A stretch of 63,898 bases of DNA, counting the filler, from an uncultured Methanosarcinales archaeon (GTDB lineage: Archaea > Nanobdellota > Nanobdellia > Woesearchaeales > JAGLXL01): the NCBI GenBank assembly GCA_964472345.1. It is 4 parts of 4 records of this genome, joined end to end, with 100 filler letters (N's around TTAATTAATTAA, not from the genome) between each part and the next. Parts side by side here need not be neighbours in the genome. Positions count along the whole stretch, not along the records: positions 1 to 18,832 come from CAYYLB010000017.1; 3 more parts are not named here. One strand, given 5' to 3'. The notes under the pieces are model-generated. The model was given only the letters and a program-made list of their open reading frames with translations. It was not told the origin of the DNA and did no database searches. Shown here in pieces: positions 8,679 through 12,243 of this stretch. Both the position numbers and the translations under genes were made by a program. Every line of letters begins with the position of its first letter. Position 1 is the stretch's first letter.

Positions 8679-10040
8679 TCAAGCCCCATTGAGCTTCTTC
8701 AGGATGTGCATGCGTCCCTTCCAGACCAGCGCTTCGCGCAGCACCTCCTCGATGCGCATCACAGGTATGATCTGCAGGCGCTTAAGCTTCGCAGGGTCGA
8801 TGATGATGTCGCGGAGATTCGAATGGGGGACAATGACACGCTTGAGCCCCGCGTCGATGGCCGCCTCGACCTTGCTCGTGACGCCGCCAACGGGAAGCAC
8901 ATCCCCCCTGACGCTCAAGGAACCGGTCATGGCAGTGTCCTGCCGCACGGGGATATGCTGAAATGCAGAGATGATGGCAGCGGCGACCGCGATGCTTGCG
9001 GAATCGCCTTCAACGCCTTCGTAGGTCTGGAGGAACTGGACGAAAATATCGTAGCGCTCCTTGATGTCCTCGCCGAAGTGCTTCATGATGATGGCGCGGA
9101 CGTTCTGGACGGCTTCTTTTGCGATATCCCCCAGCTTGCCCGTGGCGATGATCTGCGTCCCTTTGCCGCCGGGGGTGATCTCGCTCTCGATGGGAAGCAG
9201 GATGCCGCTGAACGCAGCGCCGGAGCCTATCACCGCCAGCCCGTTCACGCGGCCGATGCTGCTGCCTTCGGTGATGATGACCTCATATTCCTTCTTGCGC
9301 TCGATGTACTGGTCGGCGATCTGCTGCTCAAGCGGCCGCGCCAGTTTTTTTGCGCGCTCGAGATGGACTTTTGCAACAAGCTTTGCATTGTCTTCCTTTG
9401 CCAGGTCGCCTGCCGCACGGATGAAGCCGCCGAGGCCGCGCAGGTGAAGGGTCAGATGGCCTTTGCGGTTGGCGCGGCGGCGCGCCTCTTCTATCATCGC
9501 TTCGATAGAGTCACGGCTGAAATGGGGTATCGTGCCGTCTTTCCTGACCTCCTGCGCGATGAAACGCGCGATCTTGAGGCGGTTTTCCCTGCTATCGGGC
9601 ATGGTGTCGTTCATGAAGACCTCATAGCCATAGCCGCGGATGCGCGAGCGCAAGGCGGGATGCATGTGCTTGATGGTTTCGACATTGCCTGCCGCGACCA
9701 GGACGAAGTTGCAGGGAACGGGGTCGGTCCTGACCATCGCGCCGGCGGAGCGCTCGCTCTGGCCGGTTATGGGGAACTGCTTTTCCTGCAGTGCACTGAG
9801 CAGCTCCTGCTGGGTGCGCGGGTTGAGGGCTGCGATCTCATCGAGGAACAGGACGCCGTTGTGCGCCTTGTGGATCATGCCTGCGACCACCCGCTGGTTT
9901 GCCGGCGTGCCTAATCCACCAGAGTTTTTACAGAGGATGCCATTGACGAGCACGTTGCCCGAGCTTGTTGTGACGTTATAAAGCTTGCCCCTATAGCGGA
10001 CTCTTTCTGCTTTGGTTATAGTTTGTGTTTTAAGTTTCAT
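8679..10040 (-). CDS. lonB: LonB protease C-terminal part preceded by 39-aa intein C-fragment
   Basis: [26 protein letters not shown], Walker B VLFLDEI, catalytic GDSAS Ser and GGVTSK Lys. Confidence 0.95.
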
Positions 10041-11473
10041 GCTATAGCCTCACTACTCGGCCCAAAATTATTAAGAAGAAGATAGAGGGAGTTAGGCGTG
10101 AGGTTGAGCACTTTCATGGCATGCTCGGCGCCATATCCTCTCTCAAGGAGTTCGCCGTATTTCTTTTTCTTGAGCATCGCCCATTGCCCTAGAGCGCTAT
10201 AAAGCCGTTCTACTTTGTATGTGCAATAGTTTAGTTGGGTATTTATCAGGAAAAGGATGACGTTGTCGATTTTCTTCTCTATGAGCAAGCGAAAAATATG
10301 TGATCCTTCTGTAGCATAAGTGCCTTCATATATTGAAGTTGTTGATATCCTATTGCGACACAAATATTCTTTTAGCTCGGTGAGGAATTCAATCCTATTC
10401 TGTTTGAGAGCTAATGTGCCCGTTATTCCAACCTCTAATGTTGTAAGGTAGTTGCCGCGTTTGTGAATGATGGGGGTGCAAAGCTCTCCTCCGAGGAACG
10501 AGCCGAAAAATTCTTTTTCAAGGTTAGGGTTTATCTTAATCCATGGCGGCACTTTCAGCTCGTGGGTGGTTTTGTTGCCACGCGGGGCTCCGAGCGCAAG
10601 GAAGAAACGGATAATGTTGCGGTTTGTGTTTTGATAACACCAACTATGGCCCTTTCCACCCCCTTCAATGATGCGCGAATTCTCTCCGCCATTCAGCCCG
10701 AAAAGCGCTTCGATGTCGCGCCCAAATTCTTTCACGGCTTCAAGCTCTGAACTGGATAAGAAGATGCCGTTAAGATTCTCAAATATGCCGCCATCACCAA
10801 AGGTTGCCCCAATAACTTTTGCAATTATAGGAAGGTGGGGGCTGTCAAATTTGAGAGGGAGCAGCCTCTGCTCTTTGAGCCATAGGGCAGCCTGGATAGG
10901 TATGGGAACGTGCCTGCGTGCATGCCACCAGCGTGTTTTCCCTGTGGGTTGCCCCATCGCTTTTGCTATCCTTTTATAGCCCCAAGATGGATTCTTTGAT
11001 TTAATGTTGAGGTAGGTGTGATACAGACGGCACTGCTCACGCTGGTGCCCATCGTAGGTGTTTATAATGCTCTCTTCGTCGATTATGATATCCGTTTCGC
11101 CAGCGACAACCTCTTCACCTGCCTTGAGGTGTTGTGCTTCGACGTATACAATTTGTCCATTTTTCCACACAGCTATTTTGTGTTCTGGCGTGACGATAAG
11201 TTCTTTGTTTTCGTACGTTGTGAGTTTTATCATTTCACCACAGTGATCATATCTGTTGGATGATAAAACTTCAACGGGGGAAACAGAACCGTTTGTTTCG
11301 CCCAGTACAAAGAGGTCGTCTTTCGGAAGGTGTATTGCCTCGTAATTGTTTTGTTTATTGATAAGAACATTTCCTTTGTATTTAACGAAAAGTGGATCAA
11401 GCTCATTACTTAATTGTACGGGCTGAATCTTTCCGTCTTTTACCCGATCTATTTTTAATAGTGAAAAAAAAGT
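9924..11473 (-). mobile_element. Lon intein, split: IntN+HEN 11473-10037 and IntC 10040-9924
   Basis: Lies between HDPFQ and SGGLGTP, the site used by Thermococcales Lon inteins; visibly AT-richer than the exteins; blocks B, F and G recognisable. Confidence 0.9.
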
Positions 11474-12097
11474 TTGGAAAGGATCATGGAGCACATCGCC
11501 TAAAAGGGCGCCTGCGTGAGCGCCGGTCGCATCGTAGAACGGCGCCGTCTTCCGGTTAAAGTTGTCCACAATGAGCTTGGGGACCTGAAGCTTGCCGGGA
11601 GCGGTGCGCATGCCGACATTGATGAACAGCATGAAGCCGACGACGAAGATGATGCTGGTGATCATCGACGCCGCATAGACGATGTCCGGAATGAGGCCGC
11701 GGCGCCAGAAGTAATAGGGCAGGATGGCGCTGATAAGGACAAGGATGAGGACAATCCAGTTCTGGCTGCGCAGGAGCTTGGTGCTCTCAATCTGGGAACG
11801 CCGCGCCACCTCACGGCCACTGGCTGCAGGCACCTCCTTGATGAGCGGCTGGTTCTCATCGTGAGGATTCGGAAGCGCGAGGATGTCGGTGAGCTTTGAC
11901 TTGGGCAGGAGCTCGGCAAGAGCAAGGCCGAGCATGCTCTTTCCGGTGCCGGGATCGCCAATGAGCAGGACATGGCGGCGCTGGTGGGCTGCCTTCCTGA
12001 TGACGTTGACCGCCTCGTCCTGGCCAACGACCTGGTCGATGATGCGGTCGGAGACCTTGATCTCGGCGGTGCTCTTGAACGTGAACTCTTCAGCCAT
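10037..12097 (-). CDS. lonB: LonB N-terminal part fused to intein N-fragment with LAGLIDADG endonuclease
   Basis: Walker A GDPGTGKS, two TM helices, [13 protein letters not shown], block [24 protein letters not shown]. Confidence 0.95.
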
Positions 12098-12243
12098 AGT
12101 GGTTCATGGGCAGGGGCAAGTTTAAAAAGATTGTGTTTCCCTATTTTGACGGGAAAGAAAGCGTTCGGGGGCAGAGCGAGTGCAGGCCGCGGTACCCTCA
12201 AAGAAACCCACCCACCAAATGGTGAAGCATAATAATTATAAAT

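Follow-up and report, generated by a model that had tools for sequence, protein, structure and literature searches.

Naturally split inteins are well known from DnaE of cyanobacteria and PolB of Nanoarchaeum equitans, in which two genes each encode one part of the host protein (the extein) together with one half of the intein. According to the available parts of two published accounts, canonical split inteins contain no endonuclease and have their halves at separate loci (Dassa 2009, PMC2677866), and split inteins are defined as split mini-inteins (Novikova 2016, PMC4760082). Here, we have analyzed a stretch of 63,898 nucleotides (referred to as the window) from the genome assembly GCA_964472345.1 of a very small archaeon of the Woesearchaeota type (DPANN) living in groundwater. 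At positions 8679 to 12097, the only LonB gene of this organism very probably harbors a real, selected and naturally split intein, which has kept a homing endonuclease (HEN) fused to its N-terminal half (IntN), the C-terminal half (IntC) being encoded at the start of a second gene.

Contiguous inteins in Lon proteins are also known, such as those of Pyrococcus recorded in InBase. As far as the available part of the survey goes, 10 LonB inteins are listed in Euryarchaeota (Novikova 2016, PMC4760082). Contiguous LonB inteins share with the window the insertion point after HDP(F/L/Y)Q but, unlike it, form one polypeptide; in four of them (P0125, P0140, L080 and L081) IntN, HEN and IntC are homologous to those described here. 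A further class of related loci are the fractured genes, presumably of phages, in which a free-standing endonuclease gene lies between two split-intein halves (Dassa, London, Stoddard, Schueler-Furman & Pietrokovski 2009, PMC2677866). In the available text of that study, the endonucleases of fractured genes belong to families not known in inteins and LAGLIDADG enzymes were not found among them; it was proposed that an endonuclease gene invades a mini-intein, and that later loss of the flanks of this gene offers a hypothetical route to bifunctional inteins.

The locus in the window resembles the DnaE and PolB split inteins in that there are two genes, each with an extein part and an intein half, that a short basic IntC (39 aa, net charge +7) faces an acidic IntN end, and that the break falls within the HINT (hedgehog/intein) fold, in the loop that receives endonucleases. 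The catalytic set at its junctions (Thr1 and Ser+1) lacks cysteine, which has also been described for the Neq Pol intein in the part of the report available (PMC10189870). Unlike these inteins, it retains a LAGLIDADG endonuclease of 350 aa on IntN, its halves overlap by 4 nt, and it shows signs of horizontal movement. It therefore falls outside the definition of a split mini-intein without endonuclease, as worded in the available part of PMC4760082, while consisting of two genes with conserved halves. With fractured genes it shares the start/stop overlap between the endonuclease and the downstream gene, an arrangement that was read there as a split-intein intermediate (PMC2677866, available part). 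Six of its relatives (L020-L023, L025 and L030) have exactly the fractured-gene layout, whereas in the window the endonuclease is fused rather than free-standing and belongs to the LAGLIDADG family, and the hosts are cellular DPANN archaea and not phages.

Organization of the split lonB gene

On the minus strand, open reading frame (ORF) 1 occupies 12097..10037 and encodes 686 aa ending in SSEAIA, and ORF2 occupies 10040..8679 and encodes 453 aa, starting with the 39-aa IntC followed by SGGLGTP. The two ORFs overlap at 10037-10040, where tcat on the plus strand reads ATGA on the minus strand, and a GTGAGG motif lies at 10053-10048, 7 nt 5' of the ATG of ORF2. The archaeal LonB profile TIGR00764 aligns with both ORFs: its positions 3-196 correspond to residues 6-232 of ORF1 (E value 5.5e-60) and its positions 194-606 to residues 37-450 of ORF2 (616.8 bits against a cut-off of 516.6). 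Since these alignments meet, ORF1 and ORF2 represent two sides of one LonB, and its membership in the archaeal LonB family follows from the full-length coverage of this equivalog profile by the N- and C-parts together. The insert occupies a single point, between HDPFQ (residue 208) and SGGLGTP. ORF1 contains the Walker A P-loop GDPGTGKS, with Mg_chelatase/AAA matches at residues 21-73, and ORF2 carries Lon_C (3.9e-34) together with the LonB AAA-LID domain. With regard to charge, residues 1-39 of IntC have a net charge of +7 and residues 300-345 of ORF1, at the end of IntN, of -6. A preliminary description of the stretch had proposed these ORF boundaries, the C-terminal SSEAIA, the ATGA overlap with its upstream motif, the 39-aa IntC preceding SGGLGTP, the distribution of the Walker A and protease parts over the two ORFs and the opposite charges of the intein halves, and the sequence agrees with it on every one of these points.

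No second lonB was found within the window. Five genomes containing two-piece loci had no close LonB other than the split gene: a search with the C-part of LonB gave one match each at 70-76% identity, the other matches being at 26-33%. A TATA-like box precedes ORF1 and none was seen 5' of ORF2, which fits co-transcription and translational coupling. Both genes would be transcribed from a single promoter, and ORF2 would be translated by coupling at the ATGA overlap. The product of ORF1 would be a membrane-anchored LonB(1-208)-IntN-HEN protein, and that of ORF2 an IntC-LonB protein comprising the 39-aa IntC and the C-part of LonB. The features of the locus are listed in Table 1.

Table 1. Features of the split lonB locus, with positions along the window
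Feature	Position	Strand	Basis
TATA-box-like TTTTTAAA, candidate archaeal promoter for both genes	12121..12128	-	Putative, read from sequence; ~24-31 nt upstream of ORF1 start
LonB N-extein, ORF1 1-208: Walker A P-loop, hydrophobic membrane segment, end HDPFQ	11474..12097	-	TIGR00764, Mg_chelatase/AAA
IntN, ORF1 209 to ~335: Thr1, block B TPEH, acidic C-terminal strand	11093..11473	-	Intein_splicing, KlbA profile match
Endonuclease fused to IntN, ORF1 336-686	10040..11092	-	AlphaFold2 model, Foldseek, Pfam matches of homologues
LAGLIDADG motif 1 FGDGG, ORF1 433-437, candidate catalytic Asp435	10787..10801	-	Conservation, alignment with L080
LAGLIDADG motif 2 FLGGEL, ORF1 534-539, candidate catalytic Glu538	10481..10498	-	Conservation, alignment with L080
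GTGAGG Shine-Dalgarno-like motif in last ORF1 codons (encodes ..S-E-A..)	10048..10053	-	Sequence, recurrence in relatives
ATGA stop/start overlap of ORF1 and ORF2	10037..10040	-	Sequence, bridging contigs, relatives
IntC, ORF2 1-39, net charge +7, end CKN	9924..10040	-	Sequence, relatives
LonB C-extein, ORF2 40-453 and stop: SGGLGTP, Walker B region, AAA-LID, Lon_C	8679..9923	-	TIGR00764, Lon_C

Recurrence of the break in related archaea

When the intein part of ORF1 was used as a query, 234 proteins were identified, and the best 120 of these 234 were taken as the homologue set. The best 120, at 54-70% identity, all end no more than a few residues beyond a shared helix (LTPxSLYxxLN), one of them being cut a few residues earlier, and none is contiguous at this point. 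A shared stop point of this kind is far beyond chance, and the possibility that close relatives would all prove contiguous here, which the preliminary description had named as a test, is not borne out. Three long matches (P0052, P0075 and P0069; 934-1200 aa) were considered as contiguous forms and rejected, since the second intein that they contain lies in Walker A and their ends still coincide with the split.

Such second inteins deserve a separate remark. In some two-piece N-halves (L008:1-1992 and the three long matches), a contiguous intein with LAGLIDADG_3 interrupts the Walker A loop (GTGK/C ... HN/S, the slashes indicating the junctions), and thus one LonB can hold a cis-splicing and a split intein together.

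At the DNA level, a search of contigs with one genome per species gave 568 confirmed stretches, from the best 80 of which 79 loci could be classed: 19 were two-piece as in the window, 6 were three-piece, 2 were split with HEN remnants only, 1 was contiguous but had a different intein, and the other 51 had no intein at the site (47 of them checked at codon level), although the proportions among the best 80 of 568 are biased by this selection. In the three-piece loci, the order is LonB-N with IntN, a separate HEN gene, and IntC with LonB-C, one locus lacking the N-half at a contig end. One of the 19 two-piece loci, L001, comes from genome G001, which is also one of the five genomes mentioned above; no result rests on it alone. 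Among the intein-free loci, the C-part of LonB in L072 (4541-5832) shifts to another frame past residue ~66 in the alignment with ORF2, by frameshift or assembly error.

The geometry of the junction varies between loci. The 4-nt overlap is found in 13 of 20 two-piece junctions (12 of the 19 loci and the window), the remaining spacers being 1, 3, 21, 34, 223, 224 and 243 nt with varying relative frames, and reading through the TGA or frameshifting was rejected because of this variation in frame. Shine-Dalgarno-like tetramers are present at -22 to -4 in 13 of the 20 junctions, the window and 6 of the 19 loci having GAGG exactly at -11. With regard to the window itself, contigs independently assembled in Logan from two sequencing runs (X1 and X3) cross 10037-10040 with 0 gaps, which, together with the recurrence in 19 of 79 loci, disposes of the concern that the break might be a 1-nt indel. 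Run X2 has no contig over the junction, and in run X4 the contig ends 8 nt beyond it.

Several junctions have features of their own. In L013 (5998-6023), which is two-piece, ORF1 stops about 7 codons earlier, so that the old tail codons and GAGG form a 21-nt untranslated spacer. The tail codons are thus untranslated while GAGG is kept, which suggests that the end of ORF1 is important for ribosome binding and not for the amino acids it encodes; in the structural model of the window the last five residues, encoded by the GAGG-bearing stretch, have low confidence. The long spacers of 223-243 nt in L012 (6052-6282), L014 (6052-6183) and L009 (6031-6138) contain a small basic ORF of 35-76 aa beginning on the old ATGA overlap, and a TTTTAAAAAA-like box lies about 25 nt 5' of the IntC gene in these loci, as if the second half had gained a promoter of its own. 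In the three-piece locus L022 (6302-7279), a C-5 cytosine DNA methylase gene (PF00145, 2.2e-100) is situated in the spacer that separates the free-standing endonuclease gene from the IntC-LonB gene, apparently as a passenger.

The endonuclease fused to the N-terminal half

No Pfam LAGLIDADG family matched the middle domain of ORF1 in the window, the window HEN had no significant sequence match to any solved structure, and sequence-profile searches of the PDB with alignments A2 and A5 returned matches to the HINT part or weak helix-turn-helix (HTH) matches only. Among homologues, LAGLIDADG_3 was detected in 2 of 22 close and 5 of 32 wider sequences (best 1.3e-8), and HTH_23 in 9 of the 32 wider ones. 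An AlphaFold2 model of residues 338-686, based on 32 homologues, reached a mean local confidence (pLDDT) of 93.0 and a predicted TM-score of 0.90. It comprises two alpha-beta-beta-alpha-beta-beta-alpha repeats with helical modules at both sides, in the order of an N-terminal helical/HTH part, a two-domain LAGLIDADG core, a C-terminal HTH tail and a disordered end. Foldseek gave 96 PDB matches at E≤1e-3, those listed being of LAGLIDADG fold and nearly all homing endonucleases or engineered variants; the top ones were the TliVMA intein HEN 7qss (1.5e-6), I-Tsp061I, E-DreI, I-DmoI, I-OnuI and PI-SceI, with a target TM-score of 0.63-0.69 for I-DmoI. Thus, the LAGLIDADG identity of the preliminary description is confirmed by the fold and not by Pfam on the window.

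Both LAGLIDADG motifs could be located. The Asp and Gly of motif 1 are invariant in alignments A1, A2 and A5, and [FL]GDGG occurs in 111 of the 120 homologues; motif 2 closes helix 187-201 of the model, and its residues G536 and E538 do not vary in A1, Glu538 (in GGE) being conserved in A1, A2 and A5. In the contiguous relative L080, motif 1 FGDGG aligns with ILGDGN and motif 2 with the canonical GLFDSDGS. On the basis of fold, motifs and homologue matches, the middle domain is predicted to be a monomeric LAGLIDADG enzyme of two domains with HTH modules on either side. Like the TliVMA HEN, PI-SceI (1vde), I-DmoI and I-Tsp061I, it has a two-domain fold with an acidic residue ending each LAGLIDADG helix; unlike these enzymes, it has extra HTH modules on both sides and is attached to half an intein only. 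The HEN is under purifying selection and is constrained like the host protein: among 17 two-piece loci, its ratio of nonsynonymous to synonymous substitution rates (dN/dS) was 0.12, compared with 0.13 for the N-extein (both rough values, as synonymous sites are saturated in most pairs), and its amino-acid identity (0.62) was higher than that of the N-extein (0.58).

Evolutionary history of the split intein

The relatives form a series of contiguous, two-piece, three-piece (with free-standing endonuclease), endonuclease-less, re-joined mini-intein and intein-free forms. By searching longer proteins with the start of ORF2, we identified P0125, in which a contiguous LonB carries this intein together with its HEN and HTH tail. 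Contiguous members of this intein lineage are found in distant clusters only. P0121 (795 aa) is a contiguous LonB mini-intein, in which IntN passes directly into IntC; it is 60% identical to residues 1-332 of ORF1, and its IntC has 78% identity. This protein, a single record, may have originated from a split intein whose halves were joined again when the endonuclease and the stop/start were deleted.

A different, canonical intein (Cys1 ... THN, LAGLIDADG_3) occupies the same LonB site in L047 (4628-5914), P0122, P0123 and also G314. L047 was tried as the contiguous ancestor and rejected: it shares only 27% identity with the window in IntN and 34% over 32 aa in IntC, and hhalign of A2 against L047-type canonical inteins aligned IntN only. 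The C-extein of the L047 host is sister (support 99) to that of L008, which hosts a split intein, and two intein lineages therefore compete for this site.

Three trees were compared. In the intein tree (32 rows), a branch with support 100/99 separates all 27 split rows from the others, and the three-piece rows form one clade (97/98). In the HEN tree (50 rows, with 11 HENs inside other proteins and 10 distant free-size ones as outgroups), the contiguous Lon forms are paraphyletic, and a three-piece clade (98) lies within the split clade (96). The tree based on IntN only (30 rows) has the same backbone, with P0121 and the HEN-less loci within the split clade and the HEN-less loci (L031 and L033) within the three-piece group (99/96). 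The placement of the two-piece form between the contiguous and three-piece forms is thus supported by all three, as would be expected if the window represents an intermediate between contiguous and split inteins, the role suggested for it in the preliminary description. A caution to be set against this result is that the HEN tree came from a quick search with support by the Shimodaira-Hasegawa-like approximate likelihood ratio test only and has long branches among some outgroups.

In the evolutionary reading that we prefer, the split lineage arose once from a contiguous bifunctional LonB intein. The simplest history would begin with such an intein and proceed by a first break at the border of HEN and IntC, giving the form in the window, a second break at the border of IntN and HEN, giving the three-piece form, and repeated loss of the HEN in some lines, with at least one re-joining. 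The trees favor breaks in situ of a bifunctional intein over invasion of a mini-intein (step II of the scheme in PMC2677866, as given in its available part), and the form in the window corresponds to half of the hypothetical step IIIa of that scheme.

Possible mobility of the intein

To see how the intein is distributed, we sampled 400 genomes evenly across the class, and ORF1 matched in 303 of them. Five of these were two-piece, one being the centre genome G002, and three were contiguous; 13 had split N-halves ending near residue 330 (12 genomes) or 467 (G012). In G264, the only match was to a separate HEN, and G249 contained a fragment of the HEN. The rest matched at residues ~6-210 only, within ORFs of 600-740 aa, and hence intact target alleles are in the majority. 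The history of the intein also differs from that of its host gene. In the C-extein tree (72 rows), the intein state changes at least 14 times, at least 6 of the changes being forced by strongly supported branches, and the nearest neighbor of the window, L024, is intein-free (support 95). Approximately unbiased (AU) tests on the exteins rejected one clade of the 26 split rows (log-likelihood difference 447, p = 1.2e-5); likewise, the extein data rejected the intein clade of L007, L009 and L015 (94, p = 1.6e-74), and the intein data the extein clade of L007, L008 and L014 (81, p = 6e-6). Around the insertion site, codon positions 1 and 2 are nearly invariant over 60 bp in the 47 intein-free loci checked, and this segment, centered on HDPFQ/SGGLGTP, is a candidate target of the kind expected for a homing site.

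The conflicting histories of intein and host gene suggest continuing mobility. The HEN would most likely still cut intein-free lonB alleles at the conserved HDPFQ/SGGLGTP site, and repair would copy the whole insert, including the internal stop, ribosome-binding site and start codon, so that the gene break itself would spread. The view that the intein may still be mobile, already raised in the preliminary description, gains indirect support from the dominance of intein-free alleles, the AU tests and the purifying selection on the HEN. The wider proposal, that the split intein homes as a unit and spreads gene fission through DPANN archaea, and that the family also records a full pathway from contiguous through two-piece and three-piece to endonuclease-less forms with an occasional re-joined mini-intein, is plausible but tentative, falling a little short of what we would call probable.

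The strongest alternative is that the halves splice in trans but the element is immobile, its HEN being either dead or domesticated as an aid to folding and assembly or as a DNA-binding module, and its patchiness resulting from vertical descent and replacement of alleles by ordinary recombination. Recombination between lonB alleles could by itself make the trees incongruent without any nuclease, and the clades for the AU tests were chosen after the trees had been seen; both points count against mobility. In addition, the nuclease activity is a prediction, motif 2 contains Glu instead of the canonical Asp of L080, and recent transfer is not apparent, synonymous sites being saturated between all of the species sampled. 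However, conservation of both candidate catalytic acids, of the fold and of the flanking HTH modules, at a level of constraint equal to that of the host domain, counts against this alternative, and the predominance of intein-free alleles means that targets exist for a working one. A role in assembly is difficult to reconcile with the three-piece loci, where the same HEN persists free-standing and is unable to aid assembly in cis, and with L031 and L033, where the split intein persists after loss of the HEN, which is thus not needed for LonB assembly. We therefore regard an immobile element as unlikely, though deserving serious consideration, and prefer the reading of a split intein with a probably functional HEN.

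Predicted protein splicing

With the exception of the penultimate His, the splicing residues of a class 1 intein are retained in both halves. Residue 1 of the intein is Thr209 (11471-11473) in the window, and 117 homologues have Cys (48), Thr (45) or Ser (24) at this position and no other residue. Block B of the window is TPEH, whose T303 and H306 are invariant in alignment A1, and TxxH was matched by regular expression in 113 of the 120 homologues. The terminal Asn and Ser+1 (..KN/SGGLGTP in the window) are identical in all 27 sequences compared (26 related loci and the window). The family profile matched the KlbA intein of Mja (2jmz) at 8.2e-10, and the N-half genes of three-piece relatives stop at a position corresponding to residue ~332. 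In 69 of 117 members, Ser or Thr at position 1 is paired with Ser+1, and the combination of Thr1 and Ser+1 implies a cysteine-less catalytic center in the window. We infer that the acidic end of IntN and the basic IntC would associate and complete the HINT fold, that Thr1, the Thr and His of block B, the terminal Asn and Ser+1 would carry out trans-splicing of the oxyester type, and that the products would be a LonB of 622 aa and a non-covalent complex of IntN-HEN with IntC.

Some observations count against splicing. Thr at position 1 is uncommon as an initiating nucleophile. The penultimate His is absent, being replaced by Lys in the window and by Lys, Ser or Ala in relatives; however, it is often replaced in active inteins, and its absence is not decisive. 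The Intein_splicing family PF14890 matched residues 275-353 of ORF1 with 28.0 bits, below its cut-off of 35.8, and TIGR01445 gave 20.9 bits for the window against a cut-off of 24.5. No RNA runs containing the stretch were listed. With regard to selection, dN/dS was ~0.09 for both IntC and the C-extein and 0.23 for IntN, and these values are rough because saturation of synonymous sites left a finite dS in 18-82 of 136 pairs per region.

A second alternative could be built on the same observations, namely that the gene is split but no splicing occurs, the intein halves serving as a non-covalent docking module of an active two-chain protease. The missing His, Thr1 in the window and in 45 of 117 homologues, and profile scores under the cut-offs would all be compatible with it, and splicing is deduced from the residues present. 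Nevertheless, a docking module would need neither the restriction of residue 1 to the nucleophiles Cys, Ser and Thr across 117 sequences, nor the terminal Asn and Ser+1 in 27 of 27 and the TxxH in 113 of 120, nor an IntC constrained as strongly as the C-extein. In addition, the contiguous relatives P0125, P0140, P0153, P0155, P0156, L080 and L081 use the same splicing residues, including Thr1 in P0140, and their inteins lie within the AAA+ module, so that LonB can be formed only by splicing in cis; these relatives are the best available argument that the chemistry works. Docking without splicing is therefore improbable, and trans-splicing is the reading that we retain.

The last alternative, an assembly or sequencing error, a recent pseudogene or programmed frameshifting into one protein, has a practically negligible chance and is refuted as far as sequence data allow: although the ATGA overlap is one base away from a contiguous frame, and the runs confirming the junction are from one study and may include the source sample, the same stop is found in all of the best 120 of 234 homologues, both halves are intact ORFs at 54-76% identity, junctions differ in frame and spacing (up to 243 nt, with small ORFs between the halves) so that they cannot be explained by one recoding rule, all parts are under purifying selection, and the bridging contigs contain no indel.

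Implications

The novelty of the locus is the retention of a homing endonuclease in a split intein, on its N-terminal half. In the literature covered, which leaves out most subscription journals and so does not prove absence, we came across neither a split LonB intein nor any natural split intein with its endonuclease retained. How split inteins originated from contiguous ones is a long-standing question, for which, in the available part of the literature, the fractured genes of phages are the only proposed intermediates (PMC2677866). The LonB family provides a large, cellular and graded series in one gene, including a form that the earlier model lacked, in which the endonuclease is still joined to one half, and such a series makes the pathway testable both by comparison and at the bench. 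The form in the window resembles a surviving stage in the transition from ordinary to split inteins.

Cysteine-less split inteins are described as very rare and sought after in the available part of a recent report (PMC10189870), and the 69 of 117 members with Ser or Thr at position 1 and Ser+1 are candidate natural oxyester split inteins from groundwater organisms. Finally, our results raise the question of whether a split intein can stay mobile; if this is true, a selfish element would propagate the fission of an essential gene.

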